A stretch of DNA of 41,486 bases. Origin: Chloroflexota bacterium. GTDB taxonomy: Bacteria; Chloroflexota; Dehalococcoidia; GIF9; AB-539-J10. This document shows, piece by piece, positions 16,017 to 38,989 of this stretch; the stretch's first letter is position 1, and every line of letters starts with the position of its first letter. The DNA lies in assembly GCA_030611015.1 (NCBI GenBank), contig JAUWQP010000003.1:1-41486 (forward strand). Reading direction: 5' to 3'. A program made the translations under genes and the position numbers. The notes beneath the pieces were generated by a model, which saw only the letters and a program-made list of their open reading frames with translations, was not told where the DNA came from and ran no database searches.

Positions 16017-16164
16017 TTAAGCTTGCTGTCCTAACCAGTCGGGAGTCTGAGGCAATTGCCAGAATTTTGCTGTCTATCTGCTCCCCAACATTCGTAAAAA
16101 TCATAGCAAAGCGGCGACATTAGCGTTGATTATCGCCTATTCTTTTCTCTGGAGGAAGGAATTT

Positions 16165-16194
16165 TTGACAAAACGATCTTTTCCTTGCTATAGT
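16165..16194 (+). promoter_or_regulatory. Sigma70 promoter of the Wood-Ljungdahl operon
   Basis: TTGACA (16165-16170), 18-bp spacer, TGc-TATAGT (extended -10, 16186-16194). Confidence 0.7.
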
Positions 16195-16242
16195 ACGTTG
16201 GTTTACTCAGGATACTGCACTGATAAACCGGAGGTGTTCGAT

Positions 16243-20924: not shown

Positions 20925-22172
20925 ATGGAAGGCGAATTTCATGTAGATATAGGACCTCAGTATGAAGGCGAGGTGATAAGACAGGAAAACCTGTACATCG
21001 AGTTCGGTGGGCCAAAAGTAGCACATAAATTTGAATTAGCAACAGTTAAAAGTCCTGATGAAATAGAGAATGAGAAAGTAGAGATTATCGGCCCGGACAT
21101 AGGTGATTTGAAACCTTACGATGAAGAGAAAGGCGGTGGTAGCTATCCTATTGCCGTTCTGGTAGATGTTGCCGGAGGGGAATTGGACAAGGATGCCGAA
21201 GCAATCATCGAGAGAAGGATTCATATGTTCACTAACATGATTGAGGGTTGGTATCACATGAATCAGAGGCAGGATGTATGGATGAGGATAAATAAAGACT
21301 GCTATAAAAAGGGCTTTAATTCCCTGCGGGAATTGGGAGAAATTTATATCTTGCTTTATACATCAGAGATGTCAATCATTGAAAAAATCCAAGTCACTAT
21401 TATCACCGATGAAAAGAAGATAAAGGAGCTTCTTCCCCACGCTTTGGAAGTTTATGCCGCCAGGGATGAACGGGCAAGAACCTTGAATGATGAGGATGTG
21501 GATACTTTCTACGGCTGTGTTCTATGCCAGAGCTTCGCCCCAACCCATATCTCCATCATAACTCCAAATAGAATTGCCAACTGCGGAGCGATAAACTGGT
21601 TTGACGGCAGAGCTGCCGCCAAGATTGACCCTGATGGGCCCATATTTGCTATACCAAAGGGGGAGCTTATAGATGCTATAAAAGGTGAATATTCAGGAGC
21701 GAATGCAATTGAAGCTGAAAAGTCTCTGGGAACTTACGATAGAGTTTATCTCTACAGTGCATTTGAGCACCCCCATACATCTTGTGGCTGTTTCGAAGCA
21801 AATGTATATTACATTCCTGAAGCGCATGCCTTTGGGGTAGTGCACCGAGACTTCCAGGGCGAAACTGTAATTGGAGAAACATTTTCCCACATGGCTGGTG
21901 AAACTTCTGGAGGAAAACAAATAGAAGGAAGATTAGGAACCGGACTGGAGCAACTAAGGTCGCCCAAATTCATCCAGGCGGATGGTGGTCTGGCCAGGGT
22001 AGTGTGGATACCCAAGGATATAAAGGAAAGGTTTAAAGATGTCTTGGAAGCAAAAGGACTCTACGATAAAATAGCCACAGAGGAAGATGTTAAAAACGTG
22101 GATGAGCTTCTAGCATTCCTGGACAAGGTAGGACATCCTTGGCTAAAAGGGGAGGTAGAACTTCCGACATAA
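20925..22172 (+). CDS. cdhC: Archaeal-type acetyl-CoA synthase (beta subunit; lacks the bacterial N-terminal domain)
   Basis: VDIGPQYEGEVIR, FYGCVLCQSFAP, CGAINW, HTSCGCFE, SPKFIQADGG; start set at ATG 20925; 415 aa. Confidence 0.94.
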   Translation: MEGEFHVDIGPQYEGEVIRQENLYIEFGGPKVAHKFELATVKSPDEIENEKVEIIGPDIGDLKPYDEEKGGGSYPIAVLVDVAGGELDKDAEAIIERRIHMFTNMIEGWYHMNQRQDVWMRINKDCYKKGFNSLRELGEIYILLYTSEMSIIEKIQVTIITDEKKIKELLPHALEVYAARDERARTLNDEDVDTFYGCVLCQSFAPTHISIITPNRIANCGAINWFDGRAAAKIDPDGPIFAIPKGELIDAIKGEYSGANAIEAEKSLGTYDRVYLYSAFEHPHTSCGCFEANVYYIPEAHAFGVVHRDFQGETVIGETFSHMAGETSGGKQIEGRLGTGLEQLRSPKFIQADGGLARVVWIPKDIKERFKDVLEAKGLYDKIATEEDVKNVDELLAFLDKVGHPWLKGEVELPT

Positions 22173-22237
22173 ATACAAGATAGAATTAAAAGATGAAATT
22201 CATAATCCTATCTCAGTTTTAAGAGAGGAGATTTGTT

Positions 22238-23602
22238 ATGCCAATTGCAGGTTCTCAGATTGTAAAGATGCTTCCCGGAAGGAAACCATGTAGGGACTGT
22301 GGCTTTCCTACTTGTTTTGCTTTTGCCATGAAGCTGGCGTCAGGTGGAACCACTGTGGACAAATGCCCTTACCTTTCCGAGGAGACGAAAGCCAAGCTGC
22401 TGGATATTCTGGCACCGCCCATAAAGCTTGTTACCATAGGTTCTGAGGAGAACGCTGTTAAAATCGGGAATGAAGAAGTGATATACCGGCACGAGAAGAC
22501 ATTTGTCCATTCACCAGGCATTGCCCTCCTTATCTCAGATAAGGAAGACAAAGCTAAAACCGAGGAGAAAATAAAGAAGATAAAGGAATTGCAATTTCCC
22601 TGGGTTGGCGTAAATCTAAAGGCAGACCTCCTGGCACCTTATTGTGAATCGGGGGACAAGGCTAAATTTTTGGCTTTGGTGAAGAAAGTTTATGATTCAA
22701 CAGACCTAGGTATGGTCTTAATCTCAGAAGACATGGACGCCTTATTTGCGGCACGGGATATATGCGTGGATAGGCATCCACTTATTTACCCTATAACGAA
22801 GGAAAACATTGATGAGGCTATTCCAAAGATGAAAGCGAATCTTACTCCTGTTGGCCTTCGTGGGGAGAGTATTGAAGAACTTGTCCCCCTAACTACCAAG
22901 TTAAAGGATGCTGGGATTGAGGAATTGGTGTTAGACCCGGGTTCTAAAAATTTGCTGGAGGCAATAAGAGACCAGACTTTCATCAGGAAGGCAGCGCTAA
23001 AGCAAGGTTTCAGGCCTCTTGGCTATCCCACTATTGCCTTTCCTTGCTTCATGGCCAAAGATGGGCTGAAGGAAATGCTAGTTGGCTCGACATTTATAAA
23101 TAAATGGGCCGCTATTATTGTCTTTTCTGATTTCGACCAATATTCCCTGCTTCCTCTTCTAGTGCAACGGCTTAACATCTATACCGATCCTCGCTTTCCT
23201 ATGGCGGTAGAGGAGAAGTATTATGAAGTGGGAGAACCTGATGAATCCTCCCCGGTCCTTGTCACTTCAAACTGGGCTTTGACCTACTTCCTTGTCTCAT
23301 CGGCTGTTGAGGCTACCAAGGTTCCCGCCTATGTTTGTGTTAAGGATGCGGAGGGACTTGGTGTTCTTACTGCTTGGGCAGCAGGTAAGTTTAGCGGCGA
23401 TTCTGTAGGAACATTTATTAAGAAATGTGGCGTTGCGGATAAGGTGAAACATAGGAAGCTAGTTATCCCGGGGAAAGTGGCCAGAATCAAAGGTGAGCTT
23501 GAAGATGCTTTGAACCTTGAATGGGAAATAATAGTTGGACCCAAGGAAACGACTGGAATAGGGGCCTTTTTGCCTGGATTTGCTAAGCAACTTAAAGGAT
23601 GA
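22238..23602 (+). CDS. acsC: Corrinoid Fe-S protein large subunit (CODH/ACS gamma)
   Basis: CRDCGFPTCFAFA...CPY, YRHEKTF, NIYTDP, VTSNWALTYF, VLTAWAAGKF. Confidence 0.95.
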   Translation: MPIAGSQIVKMLPGRKPCRDCGFPTCFAFAMKLASGGTTVDKCPYLSEETKAKLLDILAPPIKLVTIGSEENAVKIGNEEVIYRHEKTFVHSPGIALLISDKEDKAKTEEKIKKIKELQFPWVGVNLKADLLAPYCESGDKAKFLALVKKVYDSTDLGMVLISEDMDALFAARDICVDRHPLIYPITKENIDEAIPKMKANLTPVGLRGESIEELVPLTTKLKDAGIEELVLDPGSKNLLEAIRDQTFIRKAALKQGFRPLGYPTIAFPCFMAKDGLKEMLVGSTFINKWAAIIVFSDFDQYSLLPLLVQRLNIYTDPRFPMAVEEKYYEVGEPDESSPVLVTSNWALTYFLVSSAVEATKVPAYVCVKDAEGLGVLTAWAAGKFSGDSVGTFIKKCGVADKVKHRKLVIPGKVARIKGELEDALNLEWEIIVGPKETTGIGAFLPGFAKQLKG

Positions 23603-24114
23603 TTACAGAGAAACAAGCTAGCCAAGCAATAGCTGCGATTTTAAGCTCGCATAAAAAAGAAGAGAGAAATTTAATTCCACTATTGCAAGAAGTCCAGACA
23701 AGCCTGGGGTATCTCCCCAGGAAAGCGCTGCAAGAAATTGCTGGCTTCTTGGGGATGCCAGCGGTTGAGGTTTGGGGAGTTGCCACCTTTTATAATCAGT
23801 TTCGTTTTGTTCCGTTAGGAAAATACCATACCATGGTTTGTATGGGAACTGCCTGTCACTTAGCGGGGGGTAAACTTATTTTAGAAGCCCTGGAGCGTGA
23901 GTTAGATATCAAAGTAGGCGAGACTAGCGAGGATGGTAACTTCAGCCTGGAAAGGGTGGCTTGTATCGGGTGCTGCATGCTGGCCCCTGTCGTAGTAATA
24001 AAGGATAAAATTCACCCTAGGATGACACCCTTTAAGATGGAGGAGGCTTTAATACCGTATAAGCAAGAAGCTCAAGGCGAGCCTAAAGAAGGGAAACCAA
24101 AGAGCAAAAGTTAA
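23599..24114 (+). CDS. NuoE/HydC-family [2Fe-2S] thioredoxin-like subunit
   Basis: LIPLLQEVQ...GYLP, VATFY, CMGTAC...ACIGCC; ATGA overlap with acsC. Confidence 0.92.
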   Translation: MITEKQASQAIAAILSSHKKEERNLIPLLQEVQTSLGYLPRKALQEIAGFLGMPAVEVWGVATFYNQFRFVPLGKYHTMVCMGTACHLAGGKLILEALERELDIKVGETSEDGNFSLERVACIGCCMLAPVVVIKDKIHPRMTPFKMEEALIPYKQEAQGEPKEGKPKSKS

Positions 24115-24203
24115 AAATCAAAATTACAATTCAAAATGCAGAAATGTCTTATTTTCAATGCTTGCCCTATCACTTTGCATTTTTACCTTTGAATCTTGAT
24201 ATT
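24098..24203. repeat. Imperfect inverted repeat built of A-rich/T-rich ~7-nt units
   Basis: caaaagt-taaaaat-caaaatt-acaatt-caaaatg-cagaaat ... ctttgca-tttttac-ctttgaa-tcttgat. Confidence 0.6.
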
Positions 24204-24210
24204 GTTTAAG

Positions 24211-26115
24211 ATGACTTTCGAGGAAATTACTAATAAAGCGAAGTCGGAATGGGAAGCTCTGCAGAGGGGTAGCTGCATTCTTATCGGCACAGCTACTTGT
24301 GGGCGGGCAGCCGGCGCCCTGGATGTGGTTGACGCCTTTAAAAAAGAGCTAACGCGGCAAGGGCTGGAAGTCCCGACTATCCAGGTTGGCTGCACGGGTC
24401 TCTGCTACGCTGATCCTTTGGTCGTTATATCCAAGGCTGGCTCTCTTCGTGTCGTGTATGCCAATGTGACTCCGGAGATTGTACCCCGCCTCGTGGAAGG
24501 TTATGTTGCCGGCGATGACCCGTGCCTTGAGCTTGCCTTAGGCACTCTTGAAGGAGGTGGTGGGGAAGCAATCTACATTCCCGAGCTTCCCAGATTTGAG
24601 CGTGAGCTTCGTCTTATACTATCCCACTGTGGCTACATCGACCCTGAAAATATAAATCACTACATTGCCAATGGTGGATATAGCGGTTTGGAGGGAACGT
24701 TAAAGATATCGCCTGATGAGATAATTGAGGAGCTGAAGAAATCTGGGCTGCGAGGACGAGGAGGGGCTGGATTTCCTACCCATCGGAAGTGGGAGCTATG
24801 CCGTAAGGCTGGAAGCACACCAAAATATGTCATATGTAATGCTGATGAAGGAGACCCAGGTGCTTTTATGGACCGGGTCGTTTTGGAAAGCGATCCGCAT
24901 CAAGTTATTGAGGGTATGATTATTGCCGGCTACGCCGTAGGTGCCGAACAGGGCTATATCTACGTCCGTGCTGAATATCCTTTGGCTATTGAGCGTATCC
25001 AGATTGCTTTAAAGCAAGCCGGGGAACTAGGTTTCCTGGGGGATAATATCTTAGGGAGTGGTTTTGGTTTCCATATCGAGATAGCAGCCGGGGCTGGTGC
25101 TTTTGTCTCTGGTGAAGAAACAGCACTGATAGCGGCCGTTGAAGGGAGGATGAGCACACCTAGACCCAGGCCACCTTATCCTGCCGAGCTTGGATTATGG
25201 GATAAACCTACTCTATTAAACAATGTGAAGACCTTTGCTTATGTTCCTTTGATAATTGAGCGAGGGGGGGATTGGTTTGCCTCTATCGGCACTGAGGGAA
25301 GCAAGGGCACAGCAGTGTTTACCCTGGCAGGCAAAGTGGTTAATTCGGGATTGGCTGAAGTGCCTATGGGAACAACACTTCGTGAGCTTATTTATGACAT
25401 CGGTGGTGGCATTGCTAAGGACAAGCAGTTTAAAGCAATACAGATAGGAGGGCCTTCGGGGGGTTGTCTCCCCAAGACTTTGCTTGACATCCCCATTGAT
25501 TATGATTCCCTTCGAGAGGCTGGCTCGATGATGGGTTCGGGTGGTATGATTGTCATGGATGAAGATAATTGCATGGTCGATGCTGCGAGGTTCTTTCTTG
25601 ATTTCTCAACCAAGGAGTCTTGCGGCAAGTGCACCATGTGTCGCTTAGGGACTTTGCAAATGCTACACATTTTGGAGGACATCACAGCTGGCCGAGGCAA
25701 AATAGAGGATATCGACCTGCTCCTTGCATTAGCTGAGGATGTTAAGATGGGGTCACTTTGTGGCTTAGGAAAAACAGCTCCTAATCCTGTCCTCACAACT
25801 TTGCGCTATTTCCGAGACGAATACGAAGCTCATATTCTGGAGAAGCGCTGCCCCGCCAGAGTATGCCCCGAACTCACTGCTTACTATATCTTGCCAGATA
25901 AGTGCGAAAGAAGCTGTGAGCATTGCGTCCTTACCTGCCCCACTGAGGCAATTAAAGGTGAGAAAGGGGAGATAAAGGTTATTGATCAAGAAAAGTGCGT
26001 TAATTGCGGCACTTGTATGGATGTTTGCCCTCCCGAGTATGATGCAGTGGTGAAGCTATCACCTGTTAGCTTGCTGCCTTCCTCGAATTTATCTGAAGAG
26101 AGCGCAAGAAAATGA
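24211..26115 (+). CDS. NuoF/HydB-family FMN/NADH-binding subunit with C-terminal 2x[4Fe-4S]
   Basis: GLRGRGGAGFP, CNADEGDPGAFMDR, GEETAL, GGPSGG, SCGKCTMCR...LCGLG, terminal ferredoxin motifs; start probably ATG 24211 (TTG 24196 possible). Confidence 0.93.
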   Translation: MTFEEITNKAKSEWEALQRGSCILIGTATCGRAAGALDVVDAFKKELTRQGLEVPTIQVGCTGLCYADPLVVISKAGSLRVVYANVTPEIVPRLVEGYVAGDDPCLELALGTLEGGGGEAIYIPELPRFERELRLILSHCGYIDPENINHYIANGGYSGLEGTLKISPDEIIEELKKSGLRGRGGAGFPTHRKWELCRKAGSTPKYVICNADEGDPGAFMDRVVLESDPHQVIEGMIIAGYAVGAEQGYIYVRAEYPLAIERIQIALKQAGELGFLGDNILGSGFGFHIEIAAGAGAFVSGEETALIAAVEGRMSTPRPRPPYPAELGLWDKPTLLNNVKTFAYVPLIIERGGDWFASIGTEGSKGTAVFTLAGKVVNSGLAEVPMGTTLRELIYDIGGGIAKDKQFKAIQIGGPSGGCLPKTLLDIPIDYDSLREAGSMMGSGGMIVMDEDNCMVDAARFFLDFSTKESCGKCTMCRLGTLQMLHILEDITAGRGKIEDIDLLLALAEDVKMGSLCGLGKTAPNPVLTTLRYFRDEYEAHILEKRCPARVCPELTAYYILPDKCERSCEHCVLTCPTEAIKGEKGEIKVIDQEKCVNCGTCMDVCPPEYDAVVKLSPVSLLPSSNLSEESARK

Positions 26116-26879
26116 CTAAAACAATTGCTATCGCGGGGAAAGGGGGTACGGGCAAGACCACTGTTGCCGCCCTGCTCGTCAAGTTCCTTTTTCAAAAGGG
26201 GTTGGTCCTGGCTGTGGATGCTGACCCCAGCACTAATCTTAACCAGGCACTGGGGCTGCCTCTGGATGATCGTAGAACTGTGGGCAAAATACGGGAAAAC
26301 ATGTCTGAAGACGTCTCGAAGGGTCGTTTAAGCTCCACTATTCCCAAGCAGGAATATCTGTTTGGCAAGATAGTGGAATCCCTGGTAGAGTCCAAGGGCT
26401 TTGACCTTTTAGCCATGGGACGTCCTGAGGGGCCTGGATGCTATTGTGCGCCCAATGAGTTTCTGCGTGCATCCCTCGATAAGCTGGTGAAGGATTATAA
26501 GTATAATTATATTGTCATGGACTGTGAGGCAGGCATGGAGCATATCAGTCGACAAACAACCAGAGACGTGGATGTCTTGCTCATTATGTCTGACCCCACA
26601 ATAAGAGGCATCACCACGGCGGCTCGAATGAAGGAACTCATTGAGGAATTGAGAACAAAAGTGGGCAAAGTTGGGCTTATAGTTAATCGTGTCCGAGGAG
26701 AATTATCTCCAGAGATAAAAAAGGCAATTGGCGAGTCTGGCCTTCAGATTATTGCTCTGATTCCAGAAGACCCCGATATGGCGAGGTTGGAAATGAAGGG
26801 AAGGCCTGTAACTGAGCTCCCCCAGGAATCCCCCATCCAATTAAAGGTCAAGGAGATAGCTGAAGGCTTACATTTATGA
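26112..26879 (+). CDS. cooC: CODH/ACS nickel-insertion ATPase (CooC/AcsF)
   Basis: GKGGTGKTT, VDADP, MGRPEGPGCYC, DCEAGMEHISR; ATGA overlap with the upstream gene. Confidence 0.93.
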   Translation: MTKTIAIAGKGGTGKTTVAALLVKFLFQKGLVLAVDADPSTNLNQALGLPLDDRRTVGKIRENMSEDVSKGRLSSTIPKQEYLFGKIVESLVESKGFDLLAMGRPEGPGCYCAPNEFLRASLDKLVKDYKYNYIVMDCEAGMEHISRQTTRDVDVLLIMSDPTIRGITTAARMKELIEELRTKVGKVGLIVNRVRGELSPEIKKAIGESGLQIIALIPEDPDMARLEMKGRPVTELPQESPIQLKVKEIAEGLHL

Positions 26880-26951
26880 TTGAGGAAATATCCTCCCTGA
26901 TGGATGTTTTGCCCGGATATGTTGAATTTTATAGAAAGGCGGTGAGGGCTT

Positions 26952-27815
26952 ATGGATACAAAAGAATACCCGGCGATATGGTTACAAGCCGCTGGATGTA
27001 CCGGCTGCTCAGTCTCTGTTCTCAACGTTATAAATCCCTCTATCAAAAACCTTTTAGTTGACGAAGTACTCCCGGGCAGTCATATAAATCTGAGGTTCCA
27101 TCCTACTGTTATGGCAGGGGCGGGAGCGACTGCCATCGAAGTTATGGTGGATACATCACGGAAGAAAAAGGGAGGTTACATCCTGATTGTGGAGGGGGCT
27201 ATACCCACCGCTAAAGGTGGCATTCATGGGGTGGTTGGGGAAAAGGATGGTAAGCTAATGACTATGAAATCGTGGGTTGAAACATTGGCCGCGGATGCGA
27301 TGGCGGTTATTGCTTTGGGTAGCTGTGCTGCTTTTGGGGGCATTCCCGCTGCCTACCCCAACCCTACTCAGTGTCGCAGCATCAGTGAGGTTCTTCAAGC
27401 CAAAGGCATCAATACTCCATTGGTGAACATCCCTGGTTGTCCACCACACCCTGACTGGTTTGTAGGCACAGTGGCAACCATCCTGCTTTCCGGTCTACCG
27501 AAGCCGGAGGATTTGGACGAACACAGACGCCCCAGGGCTTTCTATGGGCAAACAATCCACGAGAACTGTCCACGGCGAGCCTACTATGATGAGAATAAGT
27601 TTGCCAAAAAGTTCGGCGACCTTGGGTGCAACTATGAATTAGGATGTCGGGGACCTATAACCCATGCCGATTGTTCTCTAAGGTTGTGGAACAATAAAGT
27701 TAATTGGTGTGTCGGTGGTGGTGCCACTTGTATTGGGTGCACCGAGCCAGGGTTCTTTGACATATCCCCGCTTTATGAAAAAATTAGCGAAGCTGCTCTA
27801 CCAGAGGAGGTTTGA
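26952..27815 (+). CDS. [NiFe] hydrogenase small subunit, group-1 type, no Tat signal
   Basis: IWLQAAGCTGCS, VEGAIP, GSCAAFGGIP, PGCPPHP, HENCPRR, LGCRGP, WC...CIGC. Confidence 0.93.
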   Translation: MDTKEYPAIWLQAAGCTGCSVSVLNVINPSIKNLLVDEVLPGSHINLRFHPTVMAGAGATAIEVMVDTSRKKKGGYILIVEGAIPTAKGGIHGVVGEKDGKLMTMKSWVETLAADAMAVIALGSCAAFGGIPAAYPNPTQCRSISEVLQAKGINTPLVNIPGCPPHPDWFVGTVATILLSGLPKPEDLDEHRRPRAFYGQTIHENCPRRAYYDENKFAKKFGDLGCNYELGCRGPITHADCSLRLWNNKVNWCVGGGATCIGCTEPGFFDISPLYEKISEAALPEEV

Positions 27816-27819
27816 ATTA

Positions 27820-29379
27820 ATGGGCAAGATTATTATTGATCCGGTAACTCGTATTGAGGGACATCTTAAAGTTGAAGCGGTAGTCGATGATGGCAAGGTA
27901 AAGGAGGCTAAGAGTTCGGGGATGCTGTTCCGCGGTTTAGAGCTTATTATGAGGGGCAGGGACCCCCGTGATGCCCAGCGGATAACTCAGCGTATTTGTG
28001 GAGTTTGCCCAACAAGTCATTCTATTGCCGCTGCTTTAAACCTGGATAGCGCTTTTGACATCGCTGACAAAATTCCCGACAACGGCAGAATTATCCGCAA
28101 TCTAATTCTGGGGGCAGCGCATATTGCCGACCACATCCTTCACTTCTATCACTTGGTGGCTCTTGATTATGTAGATGTGGCTAGATTAGCAAAGTATGAG
28201 GGAAATAATCCCGCCTTAAATTCAATAAAGAGCTTTATTGCCCGTGGGGAACTAGGCCCGTTTGTACCTCGGTACGAAGGTGATTATCGCTTGCCCGACG
28301 AAGTTAATGAACAGGCAATAGCGCACTATGTCGCGGCATTTGACATGCGTCGTAAAGGCCAGGAGATGCTTGCGTTGTTCGGTGGTAAGATGCCTCACAA
28401 TATGGGAGTAATGCCTGGCGGAGTTGCCTCCGTACCCACGGTTGATAATATAACGTCTTTCCTGTGGAGGTTGAAGGAGCTTCAAGAGTTTATTGATAAT
28501 GTCTACCTGCCTGATGTACTGGCTGTAGCCGGGGTTTACTCAGATTATTTTGAGATTGGTCGTGGCTGTGGAAACCTGCTTGCTTATGGTTCCTATGAAC
28601 TAGATGGAAGAGAAGCAGACCTCACCAAGAGAAGCAGGTTTTTCAAGCCCGGGACCACCTCTACCAGTCTTAAGTTTAGTGAATTCGATCCAGCTAAAAT
28701 TACTGAGGAAGTGAAGCATTCTTGGTATGCTGATTCTATCAGTGGCAGACATCCCTCCCATGGAGATGTTGTTCTTGACGAAGAGAAGAAGGGGGCTTAT
28801 TCCTGGCTAAAATCACCTCGCTATGGTAGGGCGGTTTTTGAAGTTGGTCCCTTGGCTCGAATTATGGTCAATTATGCCGGTGGGAATCCCAGAGTCAAGA
28901 GCTTGGTTGACTCCACTTTGGAGCAAGTAAATCTAAAACCAAAAGATATGTTTTCTGTCATGGGGCGTAATCTTGCTCGAGCCTTGGAGACTAAACTCAT
29001 AGCCGATGCTATGGTCGACTGGGTCTTAGAGCTCAAGCCCGGTGAGCCAGCTTATATAAGCTATAAACTCCCTGAGGAGTCTACTGGAATGGGACTGGTC
29101 GGTGCAGCGAGGGGTGCCCTGGGTCACTGGATAGAGATAAAAGAAGGCAAGATTGCTAATTACAAGGTCATCACCCCTTCTACCTGGAATATTTCTCCCA
29201 GGGATGATAAAAACCAACCTGGACCCTTGGAGCAGGCTATCACTGGAACTAAGATAAAGGATGAGGCTAATCCCTTTGAGATAGTGCGCATTGTGAGGGC
29301 TTTTGACCCTTGTCTCGCTTGTTCTGTACATTTGCTCAGTCCCAAAGGGCGTGACCTGGGGGAATTTAGGGTTTGTTAG
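27820..29379 (+). CDS. [NiFe] hydrogenase large subunit (group 1a-like, Cys form)
   Basis: IDPVTRIEGH, L1 QRICGVCPTSH, L2 AFDPCLACSVH plus cleavable tail; start set at ATG 27820 after gaggagg. Confidence 0.95.
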   Translation: MGKIIIDPVTRIEGHLKVEAVVDDGKVKEAKSSGMLFRGLELIMRGRDPRDAQRITQRICGVCPTSHSIAAALNLDSAFDIADKIPDNGRIIRNLILGAAHIADHILHFYHLVALDYVDVARLAKYEGNNPALNSIKSFIARGELGPFVPRYEGDYRLPDEVNEQAIAHYVAAFDMRRKGQEMLALFGGKMPHNMGVMPGGVASVPTVDNITSFLWRLKELQEFIDNVYLPDVLAVAGVYSDYFEIGRGCGNLLAYGSYELDGREADLTKRSRFFKPGTTSTSLKFSEFDPAKITEEVKHSWYADSISGRHPSHGDVVLDEEKKGAYSWLKSPRYGRAVFEVGPLARIMVNYAGGNPRVKSLVDSTLEQVNLKPKDMFSVMGRNLARALETKLIADAMVDWVLELKPGEPAYISYKLPEESTGMGLVGAARGALGHWIEIKEGKIANYKVITPSTWNISPRDDKNQPGPLEQAITGTKIKDEANPFEIVRIVRAFDPCLACSVHLLSPKGRDLGEFRVC

Positions 29380-29404
29380 TAAAAATTTGGAGGAAAGTTC
29401 AGGA

Positions 29405-29875
29405 ATGCGAAAATTTGTTCTGGGAATAGGGAATGTCTTGTTGGGAGACGAGGGAGTTGGTTGTCATGTGGTACATGCTTTGGAGGGAATCCCTCTACCC
29501 GATGTAAAAATAATAGACGGGGGGACGTGCCCCGATGCATTTCAGCTTCTTGAGGACGCTGATAAATTGGTCATAGTGGATGCTGTTAAGGGTGGGGGAA
29601 CGCCTGGACAAATTTACCGTTTTCACCTTGAGGATATAACTCTGGAGCAAAAGCCATTTCTATCGCTTCACGATGTAGGCTTGGTGGATAACTTAATGCT
29701 AATGAAGCTGTGGCGTAACATAGGTGAGGCCGTCATTATTGGAGTCGAGCCCAGGGAGATTAACTGGGGGTTAGAATTATCGCCGGAGCTTCAAGAGAAA
29801 ATGCCTCAGATAATAGAGACCATCTTGGCAGAGCTTAGTACCTCAGCTAACCTCTCCCTTGAGGGAGAGGAATAA
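29405..29875 (+). CDS. Hydrogenase maturation protease (HyaD/HybD family)
   Basis: LGIGNVLLGDEGVG, IDGGT, IVDAV, SLHD; start set at ATG 29405. Confidence 0.93.
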   Translation: MRKFVLGIGNVLLGDEGVGCHVVHALEGIPLPDVKIIDGGTCPDAFQLLEDADKLVIVDAVKGGGTPGQIYRFHLEDITLEQKPFLSLHDVGLVDNLMLMKLWRNIGEAVIIGVEPREINWGLELSPELQEKMPQIIETILAELSTSANLSLEGEE

Positions 29876-29900
29876 GGTGAGGGTTTAAAGGAGAGATGAA

Positions 29901-30557
29901 ATGTTGATTTCAAAGCAAAAACCACTTGAAGAAATCCTAAGCTATCTTGAGGGGGATAAGAGTGTCTTTCTAATTGGCTGTAAGGGTTGTGCCGAGGGGT
30001 GGGGGAGTGGAGGAGAAAAACAGGTAGCAGAAATGAAAAGCACTTTGCAGGAAGGGGGTAAAGCTGTCTCGGGTTCAGTAGTTGTTGATATGCTATGTGA
30101 TAGCACATTAACCAAGTTGAAATTCAGATCTTATAAAGAGGAAATTGCTGCTGCCGATTCTATCCTGGTTCTGACCGATGGGGCTGGAGTACAGACTGTA
30201 GCGGAAGCAGTGGATAAGGTAGTACATCCTGGCTGCAACACTCTGTCCTCAGGTGGTGCTCATGCCGAGTGGAAAGAAGCGGAGCGCTGCCTTGAGTGCG
30301 GTGATTGTATGCTGGAGTTTACTGGTGGCCTCTGTCCCATTGCCCGATGTTCCAAGCATCTGCTCAATGGTCCCTGTGGTGGCTCACAAGGTGGTAAATG
30401 TGAAGTTGATCCGGATATACCTTGCGTCTGGCAACAGATTGTCGATCGCCTTGCCAAACTGGGACAACTTGATAAATTGGAAAGGCTTGTGACACCAAAG
30501 AATTGGAGTGTGAGCCTTACATCAGGGCCGCCGGTCAAGAGGCTTTCCAAAATATGA
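29901..30557 (+). CDS. metV: Methylene-THF reductase Fe-S subunit (MTHFR C-terminal-domain protein)
   Basis: ERCLECGDC...GLCPIARCSKHLLNGPCGG...CEV...CVW; directly upstream of metF. Confidence 0.9.
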   Translation: MLISKQKPLEEILSYLEGDKSVFLIGCKGCAEGWGSGGEKQVAEMKSTLQEGGKAVSGSVVVDMLCDSTLTKLKFRSYKEEIAAADSILVLTDGAGVQTVAEAVDKVVHPGCNTLSSGGAHAEWKEAERCLECGDCMLEFTGGLCPIARCSKHLLNGPCGGSQGGKCEVDPDIPCVWQQIVDRLAKLGQLDKLERLVTPKNWSVSLTSGPPVKRLSKI

Positions 30558-30583
30558 CTATATGCAAAAAAATTGGAGGCGCA

Positions 30584-31501
30584 ATGAAGACGAAAAGCAA
30601 TTTAGAACGGGTACTGGAGGCTGGAGAGTTTGCTGTTACAGGTGAATTGGGACCGCCACAGAGTGCTGATCCGGAAGTAATCCGAACTAAAGCTAAGATA
30701 CTGAAAGACTATGTAGATGCCGTTAATGTCACCGATGGGCAGACAGCCGTAGTGCGCATGGCATCCTGGGCAGCTTGCCTTATAGGTAAGGAGGAAGGGT
30801 TGGAACATATTGTGCAGATGACCTGTCGTGACCGCAATCGCATTGCTCTTCAAATGGATGTTCTAGGTATAGCAGCGCTAGGCATAAATAACATATTGTG
30901 TCTCACGGGCGACCACCAAAAATTCGGCAATCATCCTATGGCTAAAGGTGTTTACGATATTGATTCTATTCAATTGGTTAGCATGGTGAAGGACATGCGG
31001 GACGAAAAGAAGTTTCAATGTGGCGAGGAAATGGCGGTTGAGCCTCGTATCTTCGTCGGGGCTGCTGCTAATCCCTTTGCCGACCCTTTTGAGTTTAGAG
31101 TGGCACGTCTTGCTAAGAAAGTATCAGCCGGGGCAGATTTTATTCAAACTCAGATTGTCTACAATGTGGATAAGTTCGCTGAATGGATGAAGATGACACG
31201 GGACAGAGGATTACATGAGAGGGTAAAGATACTTGCTGGTGTTGCTCCTATAAAGTCAGTGGGTGCTGCCAAATATATGAAGACCAGAGTGCCCGGAATG
31301 GATGTGCCTGACAGCATTGTTGAGCGGCTCCAAGGAGTGCCTAAGGAGCAAGTGTCCAAGGAGGGCATCAAGCTCTGCATTGATATTATCAATCAGGTGC
31401 GGGAAATTGAAGGTGTGGCGGGTATTCATCTCATGGCTATTGAGTGGGAGGAAGCAGTGCCTGAGATAGTGGAGGCGGCAGGCCTTTTGCCTCGCCCCTG
31501 A
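30584..31501 (+). CDS. metF: 5,10-methylenetetrahydrofolate reductase
   Basis: FAVTGELGPP, NVTD, QMTCRDRNRIALQ, LTGDH, KKVSAGADFIQTQ, GIHLMA; start set at ATG 30584 after ggagg. Confidence 0.94.
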   Translation: MKTKSNLERVLEAGEFAVTGELGPPQSADPEVIRTKAKILKDYVDAVNVTDGQTAVVRMASWAACLIGKEEGLEHIVQMTCRDRNRIALQMDVLGIAALGINNILCLTGDHQKFGNHPMAKGVYDIDSIQLVSMVKDMRDEKKFQCGEEMAVEPRIFVGAAANPFADPFEFRVARLAKKVSAGADFIQTQIVYNVDKFAEWMKMTRDRGLHERVKILAGVAPIKSVGAAKYMKTRVPGMDVPDSIVERLQGVPKEQVSKEGIKLCIDIINQVREIEGVAGIHLMAIEWEEAVPEIVEAAGLLPRP

Positions 31502-31512
31502 TTTGTCCCATA

Positions 31513-32160
31513 ATGAAAAATCGTCGTTCTTCACCACATGATTCCCGGGAGCACGGTTATGAACTCTCCTATAAGCTTGCTCGTGAGCAGTTGGCTAAAA
31601 GCAGCGATATACAAGAACAATGCCGTAAAAGCGGTGCGGAGTACGTAGAGCCCAACGAGATAGTTATTAATTATCTAAATCAGCCATATTACATTACCCT
31701 TCCTGATGTTGAAATATCGTTGCAGGATAGCAAAGTGAAAGTTCCTCTGAAGGACAAAATCCTGATACTTCACTATTTCACTGAGGCGAAGGGCACCCCG
31801 GCTACCGGTAAATTGATTACCTATAAACAGCTACCGGGAGGCGTTAGCTATTTCCCGGCATTTTCCCGAAGAGCGATAGCCCCTTTAGTAAACCACTTTG
31901 GTAAAAATCCTGAGCTGCTAATAAAGGCGGCAGCAAAGTTAGGAGAGCGTGGAGCAGACTACGGGGATGTATCTGTGAATGTCAATGCTTTCGACCATGT
32001 GCCGATAACCTTGGTTTTGTGGAGAGGCGATGAGGAGATTGCTTTCAATGGAAATATATTGTTCGATGCTAATATTTCTGATTATCTTTCCACCGAGGAT
32101 ATAACTGTGCTTAGTGAAACTATCATCTGGAAGCTAGTCAGAGAGATTTCCTCTGCTTAG
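31513..32160 (+). CDS. DUF3786-family protein (commonly found with acs/corrinoid clusters)
   Basis: ILILHY, ITYKQLPGG..YFPAF..RA, LWRGDEE, ILFDANI..YLSTED. Confidence 0.85.
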   Translation: MKNRRSSPHDSREHGYELSYKLAREQLAKSSDIQEQCRKSGAEYVEPNEIVINYLNQPYYITLPDVEISLQDSKVKVPLKDKILILHYFTEAKGTPATGKLITYKQLPGGVSYFPAFSRRAIAPLVNHFGKNPELLIKAAAKLGERGADYGDVSVNVNAFDHVPITLVLWRGDEEIAFNGNILFDANISDYLSTEDITVLSETIIWKLVREISSA

Positions 32161-32225
32161 CCGTTTTGGAGATGATAAGCAAGACATTGAGCATGCCAGA
32201 AGAAGCTTGCGAAAGGAGTTAGGCA

Positions 32226-35200
32226 ATGTTTGCGCAAGGTACGATTACGTTAAATGTTGATGGAAAATATATAGAAGCCAGACAGGGGCAAACGTTATTG
32301 GAGGCTGCCAGGGGTGCGGGAATTTATATTCCCAGTCTTTGCTACTATCCCGGTCTGAAACCTCTACCCAAGGTAATCCCTGACGAGGCTTGCCAGCTTT
32401 GTATAGTGGAAGCGAATGGTAACCTCGTCCTTTCCTGTGTAACTCCTGTCTCTGAGAAAATGGTAGTTAAGACAAAGACACCAAAGATACGAGAGCTACA
32501 GAAAAAAAATCTGCTTGCCATTTTAGTTAGACAACCTACCAATATATGCTTTGAAAAAAGGGATTGCGAGCTTCAAAAAGCCATCGACTATATTGGTTTA
32601 AAGGAGATACCTGTCCATGTTCCGAGATCTTTAGCTCCTTTAGAGGATAATCCCTTCTTCGCCCGTGATTCCAGTTTTTGCATTTTATGCAATCGCTGTC
32701 TTCGGGTATGTGATGAGATAAGAGGACTTGGGGTGATTGAAACTGCCTTTCCTTGTCAGGTAGCTTGTCCTGCCGGCATAGACATTCCTCGCTATATTCG
32801 TCTTATTGGAAGAGGGAAACCAAGTACAGCCTTGGCAGTAATAAGAGAGAAGGTTCCTTTTCCTGCCGTACTAGGTAGAATATGTGCTGCCCCGTGCCAG
32901 GAGGAATGCCGACGTGGCCGTGATGTGGATAAAGCATTACATATAAGAATGCTCAAGCGCTTTGCCGCTGATAAGGGTGATGATAGCTGGAAGAAGCAAG
33001 CGAAGTTGCTTCCGGCAACTGGTAAAAGTGTAGCAATAGTGGGGGCAGGACCGGGAGGGCTCACCTGTGCTTACTATCTGGCTAAGCTGGGACACAAGGT
33101 AACTGTGTTCGAAGCTCTCCCCGAGCCGGGTGGGATGATGCGGGTGGGGATTCCTGAGTATCGCCTTCCGCGGAATGTACTTCGCGATGAGATTCGAGAA
33201 ATTGAGACGCTGGGTGTGGAAATCAGATTGAACACTCGAGTTGAGTTCCTGGATTCCCTTTTTGAACAAGGGTACCAGGCGGTGTTTCTTGCCATCGGTG
33301 CTCATGAAGAGATGAAGCTTGGCGTTGAAGGCGAAGAATTGCCCGGGGTAATCGGCTGTGTGGAGTTCCTTCGTCGGTTTAATCTTAGTGAGGGAGTGGA
33401 GGTAGGCGATCGAGTGGGAGTGATTGGTGGTGGGAATGTTGCCATAGATTCTGCACGTGCTACTTTGCGGCTTGGTGCTAAGAGGATAACCATTTTCTAT
33501 CGCAGGACGAAGAATGAGATGCCGGCCCAACCGGAAGAGGTGGAACAAGCGCTGGAGGAGGGAGTTGAAGTCATCTTTCTAGTTGCTCCTTCGAAGATTC
33601 TCACGGAGGATGGTAGCCTGAAGCTGGAGTTGATCCGTATGAAGCTGGGAGAATCTGATTCCAGCGGTAGGCGACGGCCTGTTCCTATTAAGGGAAGCGA
33701 GTTTATTGCTGAGCTTGATACTTTAATTGCTGCCATCGGCGAACGACCAGAGGTTCCTGCCGACTTCCATGTCGAAGTAGGACGGGGAAATATCTTGAAT
33801 GTTAATGAAGACCTAAGTACGAGTCGAGAGGGTGTATTTGCCGGAGGCGATTGCGTGACTGGCCCGGCTTTGGTTATCAATGCTATTGCTGCGGGAAGGA
33901 AGGCAGCTCAATCCATTGACCGTTATCTTGGCGGCAAAGGAGATATTACAGAACATCTTGTTCCTGCTGAGGAGGCAACGGCTTGGTTAGAAGATTTAAC
34001 AGTAAGGGAAAGGCTGGCTACGCTGTCTCACCTTCCACCTGAAACACGTGTTAAGAGCCTTGCTGAGGTGGAGTATGGTCTGACCCGGGAAATGGCGGTT
34101 GCTGAAGCCCAACGCTGTCTCCAATGCCATGTTATTGCTCCTCTGGAAGGGCGAACCCTTCGCGAGGTTGACTGTAAGTTCTGCGGTGCCTGTGTTGACT
34201 CCTGCCCCACAGGTGCCCTTGCTGATTTGGCTACTCGCGGGATTGTCAAGCCCGACCGTGTGGTTACTACTATTTGTCCCTATTGTGGTGTCGGCTGTCA
34301 ACTCAAAATCGAGGTCAAGGATGAAAGGATAGTAGCTTCCAAACCTGATCCGGATGGTGTAGTCAATCATGGGCAGGCCTGTGTCAAAGGCCGGTATGGC
34401 ATCGCCGAGTTCGTCCATCATCATGATAGGTTGACCACTCCCCTGATAAGAAAGAAAGGAGAGTTGAAAGAGTCATCCTGGGACGAAGCACTGGAGCTGG
34501 TGGCGAAAGAACTGAAGCACTATACACCACAGGAAGTAGGGGTAATTACCTCAGCCAAGTGTACCAATGAAGAAAACTATGTTATACAAAAATTCGCCCG
34601 GGCCGTGCTGGGTACCAACAGTGTTGATCATTGTGCCCGACTATGTCACGCGCCCACTGTGACTGGCCTGGTTCAGAGCTTTGGCAGCGGAGCTATGACT
34701 AATTCCATCAGCGAAATTAGCGACGCTGCCTGTATTCTGGCTATCGGCACCAATACTACGGAGGCCCATCCTGTGATTGGCCTTGAGCTGAAAAAGGCAG
34801 TAAACAAGGGGGGGAAACTCATTGTAGCTGGCCCCCGAGAGATTGACCTCTGTCGCTTTGCCAGCCTCTGGCTCCGACATAATCCTGGCACAGATGTTGC
34901 TCTGCTTATGGGGATGATGCGAATTATAGTGGAGGAGAAGCTAGTTGACTCAGCCTTTATCGAGGAAAGGTGTGAGAACTTCGATGCGTTCAAGGAAACA
35001 TTGAAGTGTTTTGACCTTGATTTTGTCGAACAGGTTACCAAAGTACCAAAAGGCAAGATAATAGAAGCTGCTCGTATGTTTGCCAGCAATACTCCTGCCA
35101 CCATTCTCTATTCCATGGGTATTACTCAGCATTCCCATGGCACTGATAATGTGCTGGCTGTTGCCAACCTGGCAATGCTCACCGGGAACATAGGCAAGCC

Positions 35201-36275
35201 CTCAACCGGTGTTAATCCTCTCAGAGGTCAGAACAATGTCCAGGGTGCGTGCGATATGGGCGCCTTGCCTAACGTCTTTCCCGGCTATCAGGCAGTAAGT
35301 GATTCAGCTATCAGAGAGAAGTTTGAGGCTGCCTGGGGGTGTTCCTTATCTCCGTCTCCGGGGCTGACCCTGGTTGAGATGATTGAAGCTGCCTACCGTA
35401 AAGATATAAAGGCGGTTTACCTGGTTGGTGAGAACCCGGCATTAAGTGATCCTGATGTCCAGCATGTTCGGGAGGCATTATCGCAACTTGAGTTTTTGGT
35501 AGTCCAGGATATATTCCTTTCTGAGACAGCAGGATTTGCCCATGTTGTCCTGCCAGCGGCAAGCTTTGCCGAAAAGGATGGTACCTTCACCAACACTGAG
35601 CGCCGGGTGCAGCGAGTGAGGAAAGCTATCGAGCCAATCGGTGATTCCAAGCCCGATTGGTGGATTGTTTGCCAGATAGCCAAAAAATTAGAAGCCAAAG
35701 GCTTTGACTACAGCCATCCATTTGACATAATGGAAGAAATTCGTGATCTTACTCCTAGCTATGGTGGCATAGGTTACCAGAGATTAGAGAATGGTGGACT
35801 CCAGTGGCCTTGCCCTGTTGATGACCATCCAGGCACGCCGATATTACACACGAATATTTTTGTCAGGGGGAAAGGTAGATTCATTCCACTAAAATACATT
35901 CCGCCGGGGGAGATGCCAGATGAAAATTATCCTCTGATTCTCACCACAGGGCGCAGCTTGTATCATTTCCACACCGGGACTATGACCCGCAAGGTAGCTG
36001 GACTTAATACTATGGAGCCTGAAGGTGTAGTGGAAATCAGCCCCGAGGATGCTACGCAGCTTGGCATAGCCGAGGGTGATAAAGTTAAAGTCAGTTCCCG
36101 GCGCGGTGAAGTTATTGCTAAGGCCAAAGTAACTAAGGCAGTGCCCCCAGAAGTGGTGTTCATGACTTTCCATTTTGCCGAAAGTGCTGCTAATATTCTC
36201 ACCAATCCCGAACTCGACCCGGTAGCCAAGATTCCCGAGTTCAAAGTTGCAGCAGTTAGAGTGGAGAAGGTCTGA
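32226..36275 (+). CDS. fdhF: Formate dehydrogenase alpha subunit (Mo/W-bisPGD, Cys ligand) fused to N-terminal [2Fe-2S]/ferredoxin and GltD/NfnB-like FAD-NADP(H) domains
   Basis: [2Fe-2S] LC...ACQLC...SC; GltD-like PCQVACP, GAGPGG, GGGNVAIDSAR, YRRT, AGGD; Fdh CPYCGVGC, DHCARLCH, RGQNNVQG, FAEKDGTFTNTERR, LTTGR, KIPEFK. Confidence 0.93.
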   Translation: MFAQGTITLNVDGKYIEARQGQTLLEAARGAGIYIPSLCYYPGLKPLPKVIPDEACQLCIVEANGNLVLSCVTPVSEKMVVKTKTPKIRELQKKNLLAILVRQPTNICFEKRDCELQKAIDYIGLKEIPVHVPRSLAPLEDNPFFARDSSFCILCNRCLRVCDEIRGLGVIETAFPCQVACPAGIDIPRYIRLIGRGKPSTALAVIREKVPFPAVLGRICAAPCQEECRRGRDVDKALHIRMLKRFAADKGDDSWKKQAKLLPATGKSVAIVGAGPGGLTCAYYLAKLGHKVTVFEALPEPGGMMRVGIPEYRLPRNVLRDEIREIETLGVEIRLNTRVEFLDSLFEQGYQAVFLAIGAHEEMKLGVEGEELPGVIGCVEFLRRFNLSEGVEVGDRVGVIGGGNVAIDSARATLRLGAKRITIFYRRTKNEMPAQPEEVEQALEEGVEVIFLVAPSKILTEDGSLKLELIRMKLGESDSSGRRRPVPIKGSEFIAELDTLIAAIGERPEVPADFHVEVGRGNILNVNEDLSTSREGVFAGGDCVTGPALVINAIAAGRKAAQSIDRYLGGKGDITEHLVPAEEATAWLEDLTVRERLATLSHLPPETRVKSLAEVEYGLTREMAVAEAQRCLQCHVIAPLEGRTLREVDCKFCGACVDSCPTGALADLATRGIVKPDRVVTTICPYCGVGCQLKIEVKDERIVASKPDPDGVVNHGQACVKGRYGIAEFVHHHDRLTTPLIRKKGELKESSWDEALELVAKELKHYTPQEVGVITSAKCTNEENYVIQKFARAVLGTNSVDHCARLCHAPTVTGLVQSFGSGAMTNSISEISDAACILAIGTNTTEAHPVIGLELKKAVNKGGKLIVAGPREIDLCRFASLWLRHNPGTDVALLMGMMRIIVEEKLVDSAFIEERCENFDAFKETLKCFDLDFVEQVTKVPKGKIIEAARMFASNTPATILYSMGITQHSHGTDNVLAVANLAMLTGNIGKPSTGVNPLRGQNNVQGACDMGALPNVFPGYQAVSDSAIREKFEAAWGCSLSPSPGLTLVEMIEAAYRKDIKAVYLVGENPALSDPDVQHVREALSQLEFLVVQDIFLSETAGFAHVVLPAASFAEKDGTFTNTERRVQRVRKAIEPIGDSKPDWWIVCQIAKKLEAKGFDYSHPFDIMEEIRDLTPSYGGIGYQRLENGGLQWPCPVDDHPGTPILHTNIFVRGKGRFIPLKYIPPGEMPDENYPLILTTGRSLYHFHTGTMTRKVAGLNTMEPEGVVEISPEDATQLGIAEGDKVKVSSRRGEVIAKAKVTKAVPPEVVFMTFHFAESAANILTNPELDPVAKIPEFKVAAVRVEKV

Positions 36276-38974: not shown

Positions 38975-38989
38975 TTAGTGAGGCATGAA

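Follow-up and report, generated by a model that had tools for sequence, protein, structure and literature searches.

The DNA stretch analysed here (the window, 41,486 nt) is the whole of contig C84 of G000, a Dehalococcoidia metagenome-assembled genome (MAG) of 1.79 Mb in 116 contigs, and it raises the question of whether the redox genes built into its CO dehydrogenase/acetyl-CoA synthase (CODH/ACS) operon encode one enzyme complex or several. The initial annotation had proposed a single [NiFe]-based electron-bifurcating hub. We consider it reasonably probable that the operon consists instead of three separately inherited redox modules: a Bfu-type NADH/ferredoxin module of CODH/ACS (HydC-HydB), an H2:methylene-tetrahydrofolate (methylene-THF) reductase (HydSL with MetVF), and an NADPH-linked formate dehydrogenase (Fdh) in the form of a 1349-aa fusion protein. 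The single hub loses ground on three observations: the hydrogenase is Group 1-like, the modules are separate in relatives, and the organism has its own NiFe-HydABCSL-like cluster on contig C64.

The flagged stretch is the 3' two-thirds of a ~20-kb, 16-gene Wood-Ljungdahl operon from an uncultured Dehalococcoidia bacterium of sediment. The 16 genes lie on the plus strand at ~16.1-36.3 kb with intergenic gaps of 96 nt or less. In operon order, with Pfam families and E-values in brackets, they are as follows:

16126..17130, +, acsE-like methyl-THF:corrinoid methyltransferase, the operon's first gene (Pterin_bind 2.4e-23)
17144..18061, +, cdhD, delta subunit (CdhD 8.6e-40); the open reading frame (ORF) opens at 17066 and relatives have 301-306 aa
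18049..20355, +, cdhA, archaeal-type CODH alpha subunit (Prismane 1.5e-63)
20368..20919, +, cdhB, epsilon subunit (CO_dh 2e-30)
20925..22172, +, cdhC, acetyl-CoA synthase subunit (CdhC 1.3e-53, ACS_CODH_B_C 9.5e-77); the ORF opens at 20868
22238..23602, +, cdhE/acsC, large corrinoid Fe-S protein subunit (CdhD family 7.7e-87, FeS 1.1e-09)
23599..24114, +, hydC, BfuC/NuoE-like, with [2Fe-2S] cluster C1 (2Fe-2S_thioredx 1.6e-48)
24211..26115, +, hydB, BfuB/NuoF-like (Complex1_51K 6.1e-48, NADH_4Fe-4S 1.3e-31, SLBB, C-terminal Fer4)
26112..26879, +, cooC, Ni-insertion ATPase for CODH (CbiA/AAA_31)
26952..27815, +, hydS, [NiFe] small subunit (Oxidored_q6, NiFe_hyd_SSU_C)
27820..29379, +, hydL, [NiFe] large subunit, Cys-type (NiFeSe_Hases 3.1e-153)
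29405..29875, +, hydD, hydrogenase maturation endopeptidase (HycI 9e-23)
29901..30557, +, metV (DUF5981, methylene-THF reductase C-terminal, 2.5e-33)
30584..31501, +, metF, start at 30554 or 30584 (MTHFR 2.4e-46)
31513..32160, +, DUF3786 protein, a common Wood-Ljungdahl cluster companion (DUF3786 1.3e-53)
32226..36275, +, 1349-aa NfnA/StnA-like fusion (Fer2_4, Fer4_20, Pyr_redox_2, Molybdop_Fe4S4, Molybdopterin, Molydop_binding)

The gene block is well beyond chance, with strong family matches throughout a single co-directional arrangement, and the Pfam matches agree with the gene content and families listed by the initial annotation. The acsE-like gene probably starts downstream of its TTG, judging from relatives of 292-309 aa, and we place the start of cdhD at 17144. 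CdhA matches an archaeal alpha subunit of the acetyl-CoA decarbonylase/synthase (8riu_A, 4.5e-268) across residues 20-743; the Cys motifs line up, and the protein appears intact. The translational coupling by ATGA overlaps that had been described for acsC-hydC-hydB-cooC was present at cdhE/hydC and at hydB/cooC; at hydC/hydB there is instead a 96-nt spacer between the hydC stop and the ATG at 24211 (81 nt if the TTG at 24196 is the start). This spacer (24115-24210) is AT-rich, and in relatives the junction ranges from an overlap to ~97 nt. Rfam and tRNA scans of the window, the spacer included, gave no matches.

Whether the modules belong together was judged from two sets of gene neighbourhoods. 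The HydL-anchored loci were the best 80 of 298 relatives; 75 of the 80 bear Dehalococcoidia/Chloroflexi-type record titles, and the remaining five are titled Actinomycetota, Thermodesulfovibrionales, Latescibacterota, Desulfobacteraceae and simply 'bacterium' (L041). MetV lies within 3 ORFs of hydL in 66 of the 69 loci with at least 1.8 kb downstream (the exceptions are L065, L082 and L093), and MetF within 5 ORFs in 62 of the 64 loci with at least 2.8 kb downstream. HydB was found upstream of hydL in 21/48 loci with at least 4.5 kb upstream, and a GltD-Fdh fusion downstream in 14/44 loci with at least 8 kb downstream; the DUF3786 gene is downstream in 24/44. By HydL identity, the two outer modules were distributed as follows:

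HydL identity of 82% or more: HydB upstream 20/22; fusion downstream 13/20
HydL identity 75-82%: HydB upstream 1/4; fusion downstream 0/3
HydL identity 60-75%: HydB upstream 0/22; fusion downstream 1/21

When any Fdh is counted, 19/20 loci at 82% identity or more have one downstream. The gene position after DUF3786 is taken in relatives by the fusion, by NuoE-NuoF-FdhA (FdhA with a NuoG-type N-terminus) or by NuoE-NuoF::GltD-FdhA. The second survey covered 401 Dehalococcoidia-class genomes and extracted a surrounding stretch of up to 20 kb for each of the 40 best-matching HydB orthologues (63-90% identity; 40 source genomes with 13 family labels); the tallies refer to the 38 stretches with a callable HydB ORF, and the unpublished genome G244 enters them as a count only. 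CdhE or CdhC lies within 4 ORFs of hydB in 30/38 stretches, HydL is present in 5/38 and the fusion in 1/38. The modules thus occur independently in relatives, the outcome that the initial annotation had itself named as speaking against a hub. Its further suggestion that the modules might feed CODH or MetVF directly fits these comparative data. The gene content, motifs, family assignments and co-travelling genes reported here are direct observations.

HydC-HydB travels with the archaeal-type CODH/ACS genes (cdhDABCE, cooC). HydB has full-length PDB matches to 7t2r_B (Acetomicrobium mobile NiFe-HydB, 4.2e-226), 9n5u_B (C. saccharolyticus NfnB, 7.9e-224), 9bov_B (1.3e-222) and 8oh5_B (Sporomusa ovata, 4.2e-213). 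The bifurcating-type motifs ascribed to it were all found: the translation carries DPGAFMD, GAGAFV, GGPSGG, H541...C547-x4-C552 and two C-terminal Cys4 motifs, the first spaced C-x3-C-x2-C-x3-C, and these line up position for position with their counterparts in HydB of A. mobile and NfnB of C. saccharolyticus. The B1 ligands C471, C474, C477 and C517 are conserved in 39/39 sequences (the window and 38 relatives), as are H541, C547, C552 and eight C-terminal Cys (565-606), which also align with 7t2r_B and 9n5u_B. HydC C81, C86, C122 and C126 are conserved in all 35 aligned sequences, the window included. The N-terminal domain of HydB has invariant C30, C61 and C65, with C105 in 37/39, a set resembling that of NfnB, whose site holds Zn (PMC11829005). 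The minimal bifurcation site is described as B1-FMN-C1 (PMC11829005), and the extra BfuB clusters, namely the His/Cys site and two [4Fe-4S], are reported to be lacking in non-bifurcating NuoF homologues (PMC9304861). Because these extra clusters are present here, HydC-HydB is by published criteria, as far as its sequence tells, a complete and genuine BfuBC core.

A BfuA homologue is reported in the same operon for virtually all of 1558 HydB sequences (PMC9304861). In the window no separate bfuA adjoins hydCB; a BfuA-type N-terminal domain is found on the fusion 6 kb downstream, and a 210-aa HoxU/BfuA-like gene lies beside fhs on contig C47, unlinked to hydCB. Among the HydB-anchored stretches a HoxU-like gene is adjacent to hydCB (a hydC-hydB-HoxU-like triplet) in 5/38 and present anywhere in 9/38, and a NuoG-type FdhA adjoins hydB in 2/38. 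The genes for Fhs, HoxU-like, acsE, cdh proteins, hydC and hydB are contiguous in L140-L143. L155 and L156 (genomes G243 and G169) have an extra NuoE-NuoF-HoxU-like trio between cdhA and cdhB, with hydC-hydB after cooC. In other families the genes after hydB encode ADP-forming acetyl-CoA synthetase-like proteins, and there are three such paralogues after hydB in L156 and two in L155. The cdh-hydCB clusters of L149, L150, L154 and L157 also have a ~232-aa gene between cdhA and cdhB, which in L150 encodes DUF166 (1.2e-56).

From such patterns we infer the physical contacts, electron paths and substrates of all three modules. For HydC-HydB the adaptor is likely the 210-aa BfuA/HoxU-like protein encoded beside fhs, and HydCB with this adaptor would probably give CO dehydrogenase a connection to both NAD(H) and ferredoxin, a Cdh counterpart of the Codh-Bfu that has been predicted. 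The argument made for Codh-Bfu is that bifurcation helps where very low CO raises the effective CO potential (PMC9304861); we suggest that channelled CO in an ACS-coupled enzyme could act like very low CO. HydBC as the NADH input of MetVF, in the style of RnfC2 of Acetobacterium woodii, was also considered and rejected: genomes of the same genus that have an RnfC2-like gene before metV-metF still have hydCB in the cdh block.

The second module joins the hydrogenase to MetVF. HydL matches Group 1 enzymes best (5jsu_B, 6.7e-129; 1frf_L, 4.9e-128), and its match to A. mobile HydL (7t2r_D, 1.8e-27) covers only the N-terminal 114 residues (3-116). HydS likewise has its best match in Group 1 (1cc1_S, 1.2e-79), and there were no Group 3 chains among its 43 matches. 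HydS begins 6 residues ahead of the conserved EYPxIWLQ and therefore has no room for a twin-arginine translocation (Tat) signal; no genuine Tat signal was found among 71 HydS orthologues, the single RR-motif match (L097) lying within an upstream TTG extension. Its sequence provides for three clusters, and four Cys stand at the medial one, a feature that we liken to [NiFeSe] enzymes. No cytochrome, membrane anchor, quinone or Hdr gene, and no ferredoxin gene, was found in the Pfam annotation of the operon block. These features support a cytoplasmic hydrogenase that resembles Group 1 without its export signal, so that the initial annotation was right on the cytoplasmic location and on the co-encoded MetVF, whose genes follow hydD.

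Other donor modules take the place of the hydrogenase in relatives. In the same-genus genomes G364, G340 and G240 hydS-hydL-hydD are absent from the block and cdh-hydCB is kept. G364 encodes before metV-metF a 671-aa protein with MetV-like, RnfC_N, Complex1_51K, SLBB and Fer4 domains (Pfam), a domain order matching the RnfC2-type NADH donor of A. woodii; BLAST labels indicate a similar RnfC2-like protein at this position in G340 and G240. L143 has an MvhD-like Fe-S protein upstream of metV-metF. G000 itself has three MetV-MetF sets, whose upstream modules are HydSL (C84), GltD::MvhD (C27) and HdrA/MvhD with HdrA::GltD (C13). The C27 set (L185, 2822-6328) includes a 708-aa GltD::MvhD fusion with its own pair of histidine kinase and response regulator, and the C13 set (L186, 2-5163) lies within the HdrA/MvhD/HdrA::GltD cluster.

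HydSL and MetVF would together form a soluble H2:methylene-tetrahydrofolate oxidoreductase, in which electrons could pass from H2 through the NiFe site, the three HydS clusters and the Fe-S clusters of MetV to the MetF flavin; the MetV alignment has the invariant Cys of a Cys-rich MetV. Such a transfer would be strongly downhill because methylene-THF stands at about -200 mV against -414 mV for H2 (PMC9304861), and a direct step would conserve no energy, unlike the chain of S. ovata. A complex prediction of HydS (65-row alignment) with MetV scored 0.01, the mark being 0.32, and gives no verdict either way. The literature search found no paper pairing a [NiFe] hydrogenase with MetVF, supplements, which may hold gene-neighbourhood figures, lying outside the search. 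The passages covered from PMC5736913, PMC7325909, PMC9586279 and 10.1101/2021.08.23.457424 describe neither this pairing nor hydCB in cdh operons.

The third module is the 1349-aa fusion, in which a 2Fe-2S N-terminal domain is followed by a GltD/NfnL-like FAD-NADPH module, Fe-S clusters and a Cys-type formate dehydrogenase. Its N-terminal half matches 9bov_A (2.8e-141), 9n5u_A (NfnA, 2.5e-127) and 8oh5_C (1.3e-122). Its C-terminal half (Molybdop_Fe4S4 8.6e-83, Molybdopterin 1.3e-36, Molydop_binding 1.4e-18) matches working formate dehydrogenases, namely the F420-dependent 9t1s_L (2.3e-235), FdhF of the Thermoanaerobacter kivui hydrogen-dependent CO2 reductase (7qv7_S, 3.9e-224) and FdsA-type enzymes (3e-195); the same half gave 5.2e-45 with StnA and 3.5e-49 with 9bov_A. 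The sequence has a Cys-His pair and an RGQNNVQG stretch, which we take to be the position of the catalytic selenocysteine/Cys-His and a formate dehydrogenase motif, respectively. NfnA has an N-terminal domain, an NfnL-like and an Fdh-like domain whose pterin site is incomplete, and its A2-A4-A5 branch was called a probable evolutionary remnant (PMC11829005). Because the N-terminal half matches BfuA of Nfn-Bfu and the C-terminal half matches working enzymes, the fusion has the NfnA/StnA layout with an Fdh domain that is predicted to be intact ('live'). It would be an NADPH-linked formate dehydrogenase and could by itself act as an NADPH:CO2 reductase; that its A1-type N-terminal domain docks onto HydCB is conceivable.

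A match to the N-terminal half at E <= 1e-120 was found in 131/401 genomes, with full fusions (ORFs of 1350-1410 aa) in at least nine and split forms of ~800-840 aa among the matches listed; split relatives of ~800 + 540 aa occur. Genomes G340, G292 and G078 have cdh-embedded hydCB and no match to the N-terminal half at this threshold. Among 10 fused or split loci fetched, 8 have no adjacent NuoEF and 2 (L174 and L175) stand beside NuoE-NuoF-FdhA.

An inventory of Bfu-like parts in G000 gave four NuoE/NuoF pairs: hydCB, a NuoE + NuoF::GltD pair at the window end, a C64 set and a C107 set. The pair at the window end is as follows:

38978..41484, +, second NuoE + NuoF::GltD fusion gene, truncated by the contig end, a separate formate dehydrogenase/Bfu-like set

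Contig C13 of G000 (28166-31655) has a GltD C-terminal fragment at its end, then a 987-aa NuoG-type formate dehydrogenase. In L031 the NuoE + NuoF::GltD pair is followed by a NuoG-type FdhA, and because the three are contiguous there, C84 and C13 probably join. The C64 cluster encodes NuoE, NuoF::GltD, a 663-aa HydA-like protein and HoxY/H-like subunits, and is by its gene make-up the candidate for the organism's real NiFe-Bfu/Hox-like (NiFe-HydABCSL-like) enzyme. The C107 set (8235-11848, L019) consists of NuoE, NuoF::REC (761 aa, with a response-regulator receiver domain) and a 209-aa Fer2_4 protein, and could represent a Bfu-like module that senses redox state or is itself regulated. Six Fer2_4 (BfuA-type) domains were found in G000. 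Three lie beside, or plausibly belong to, the three NuoEF pairs other than hydCB; the fusion and the 210-aa HoxU-like protein on C47 have no NuoEF pair of their own. The Fer2_4 protein on C23 was rejected as a further BfuA, since its Fer2_4 + Pyr_redox_2 gene adjoins a DAO-type oxidase.

The inventory confirmed that there is no [FeFe] HydA in the window; the sole Fe_hyd_lg_C match in G000 is fused to a histidine kinase. This C68 protein (4911-6905, L020; [FeFe]-hydrogenase-like domain with HisKA/HATPase_c, beside a sigma-54-type gene) is probably an H2 sensor kinase. Likewise, the fusion carries the only NuoG-like N-terminal Fe-S module in the window, as the initial annotation had noted, and G000 has in addition the free-standing 210-aa HoxU/BfuA-like protein.

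The alternatives differ in how they assign these parts. The single soluble supercomplex would unite HydBC and HydSL with the Fdh fusion, possibly also with MetVF or CdhA, and couple H2, formate/CO2, NADH, NADPH and ferredoxin; its appeal lies in the close packing of all the genes in one direction, two ATGA overlaps included, in a HydB with every Bfu-type motif, and in the whole order being kept at 82% HydL identity or more. We regard it as very improbable. Neither HydS nor HydL is of Group 3, the type found docked on HydA in NiFe-HydABCSL. The NuoG-like, H-cluster-less HydA connector of that enzyme was not found in the window, and the operon lacks any HydA-like connector bearing a site of the A3 type. 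The modules come apart in remoter relatives and already among genomes of the same genus, and the dedicated NuoE-NuoF::GltD-HydA-like-HoxY/H-like cluster is encoded elsewhere in G000. Unlikely without being negligible is the proposal that the 1349-aa protein serves as BfuA for HydC-HydB. The product would be a four-substrate enzyme for formate/CO2, NADP(H), NAD(H) and ferredoxin, like NfnABC/StnABC with a live Fdh branch, and hydCB would stay in the cdh block by shared regulation only. The N-terminal half does match BfuA of Nfn-Bfu (1e-122 to 1e-141), and in NfnA, which has the same layout, the 2Fe-2S cluster A1 bridges to B1 of the BC core (PMC11829005). The same domain set recurs as NuoE + NuoF::GltD + FdhA at the window end and in L031, a similar fusion adjoins NuoE-NuoF-FdhA in L174 and L175, and hydCB is the only BfuBC pair of G000 without an adjacent BfuA gene. 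This proposal is opposed by the three genomes with cdh-embedded hydCB and no match to the N-terminal half, by the single fusion among the 38 HydB-anchored stretches, by the eight fused or split relatives without neighbouring NuoEF, by L061, where the fusion lies downstream of a cdh cluster without hydCB, and by L037, L038, L042, L045, L064 and L081, in which hydCB is retained in the cdh block and FdhA has its own NuoEF.

The hydrogenase could also be merely co-regulated with MetVF, reducing a free carrier such as ferredoxin or recycling H2, with MetVF drawing on reduced ferredoxin. Reduced ferredoxin has been reported or proposed as the donor of two-subunit MetVF (PMC8760232, PMC8515935), and the HydS-MetV interface was not obtained in a prediction that gives no verdict. 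We hold this to be improbable, in view of a HydSL-MetV pairing that persists down to 61% identity and across several phylum labels, of known MetVF donor modules (RnfC2-like, MvhD-like) that occupy the hydrogenase position in relatives, and of a block in which no ferredoxin gene was annotated. We give a similarly low probability to a BfuBC core common to two adaptors, HoxU-like to Cdh and NfnA-like with live Fdh, by which both CO2-reducing steps of the Wood-Ljungdahl pathway would draw on NADH and ferredoxin (and NADPH) at one common bifurcating flavin site and H2 would enter the methyl branch directly via HydSL-MetVF; if true, this acetyl-CoA pathway would spare ferredoxin and suit organisms living close to the thermodynamic limit. 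The division into three modules that we favour has several points weighing against it. For the MAG, completeness stands at 88.6% and contamination at 6.7%. Gene neighbourhood is a sign of shared regulation or pathway, not of binding, the counts overstate independence because related loci are kin, and the proposed module contacts and activities are read from gene neighbourhood and sequence. L174 and L175 place a similar fusion beside NuoE-NuoF-FdhA. Because hydCB is the sole BfuBC pair without an adjacent BfuA and two BfuA-type domains are without a pair, HydCB could serve the fusion instead of, or besides, CODH. There is no obvious energetic gain from a bifurcating core for CO2/CO at -520 mV. 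Finally, co-transcription of all modules is possible because the 16 genes are tightly co-directional and there is no convincing internal terminator.

Scans for transcription signals in 15800-35799 stayed at chance level for promoter-like sites (32 vs 25.9 +/- 5.1 expected) and for terminator-like sites (24 vs 19.1 +/- 4.9 expected), and no scanned site coincides with a module boundary. The best promoter-like site, in a scan that is overall at chance level, is at 16165-16194, near the acsE-like start. Contigs from the RNA libraries of one study cover 27/30 bins of 16400-36399 with 93-99% likeness, without a silent-region control. Junctions are bridged by RNA contigs across hydB/cooC (X17) and hydD/metV (X15); assembled RNA contigs cannot prove a single transcript, and nothing should be read into the uncovered bins in X15, X16 and X17. 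The Dehalococcoidia abound in anoxic sediments, and near-identical sequence was found in DNA runs from several studies whose labels are sediment, subsurface and cold seep. The flanks of the operon contain the following:

11441-13423, -, upstream of the operon, tungsten-type aldehyde:ferredoxin oxidoreductase (AFOR_N/AFOR_C) alongside an MFS transporter
36398..38520, -, PAS histidine kinase with a NarL/LuxR-type response regulator, operon neighbours in close relatives
38582-38974, small ORF before the second NuoE, with a sub-threshold Frankia_peptide match (29.5 bits vs a cut-off of 48) that is probably not meaningful

The kinase/regulator pair lies downstream of the fusion in, for example, L026, L027, L043, L051 and L063.

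There is debate over which electron donor MetVF uses, and over the energy balance of acetogenesis that follows from it (PMC8760232). The hydrogenase beside MetVF offers a testable alternative donor, and the bifurcating-type NADH/ferredoxin core within CODH/ACS operons a second testable coupling. The two modules suggest putative routes for H2 and NADH into the Wood-Ljungdahl pathway, and these couplings could alter the modelling of H2 and CO2 turnover in sediments. More generally, that many genes run in one direction as a long operon does not count as evidence for a single complex; the real units can be resolved by comparing synteny.

Each module is built on known kinds of enzyme, and its particular combination is new by gene content, with functions that are predicted. 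The known MetVF systems, namely A. woodii MetF-MetV-RnfC2 (NADH), Moorella HdrABC-MvhD-MetVF and the two-subunit MetVF of C. ljungdahlii (PMC5736913), share with the present one a MetV + MetF core with the donor module, where there is one, encoded directly beside it; here that module is a [NiFe] hydrogenase. In S. ovata membranes, H2-dependent methylene-THF reduction runs via Tat-exported, cytochrome b-anchored hydrogenases, quinone, MvhD-HdrABC and MetVF and yields a proton gradient (PMC9430772). H2 electrons would reach methylene-THF via MetVF in both cases, whereas the hydrogenase here is signal-less and predicted to be soluble, and none of the genes annotated in the block is a cytochrome, quinone or Hdr gene. 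Both of its subunits match Group 1 enzymes best (Desulfomicrobium baculatum 1cc1; Desulfovibrio 5jsu and 1frf), from which it differs in lacking a Tat signal and a cytochrome partner, in having Cys and not selenocysteine at the active site (compared with [NiFeSe] enzymes) and in the position of its genes beside metVF.

The fusion shares with NfnA/StnA the 2Fe-2S N-terminus, the GltD/NfnL-like FAD-NADPH module, the Fe-S clusters and the Fdh-like domain; unlike those proteins, which have an incomplete pterin site and act as transhydrogenases only, it has by sequence a genuine Cys-type Fdh domain. A comparable enzyme, we presume, is the two-subunit formate dehydrogenase of Moorella thermoacetica, which depends on NADP. 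HydC-HydB shares with the BfuABC family (7t2r, 9n5u, 8oh5) a full-length BC match, the FMN/NADH motifs, B1, C1, the His/Cys site and the two [4Fe-4S] clusters. Unlike A. mobile NiFe-HydABCSL, NfnABC and StnABC, hydCB has no adjacent BfuA and sits between cdhE and cooC; unlike the first of these, the hydrogenase neighbouring it is not of Group 3 type. Its nearest counterpart is Codh-Bfu, a Type 2 Bfu already predicted for Firmicutes (Acetohalobium arabaticum, Clostridium cellulovorans) with different CODH genes (PMC9304861). Both have bfu genes interleaved with CO dehydrogenase genes and a candidate minimal BfuA-type adaptor without a catalytic domain, and both are predictions from genes. Unlike Codh-Bfu, with its CooS-type CODH, the present system is built around the five-subunit Cdh-type CODH/ACS of Dehalococcoidia, and its bfuA-like gene is unlinked.

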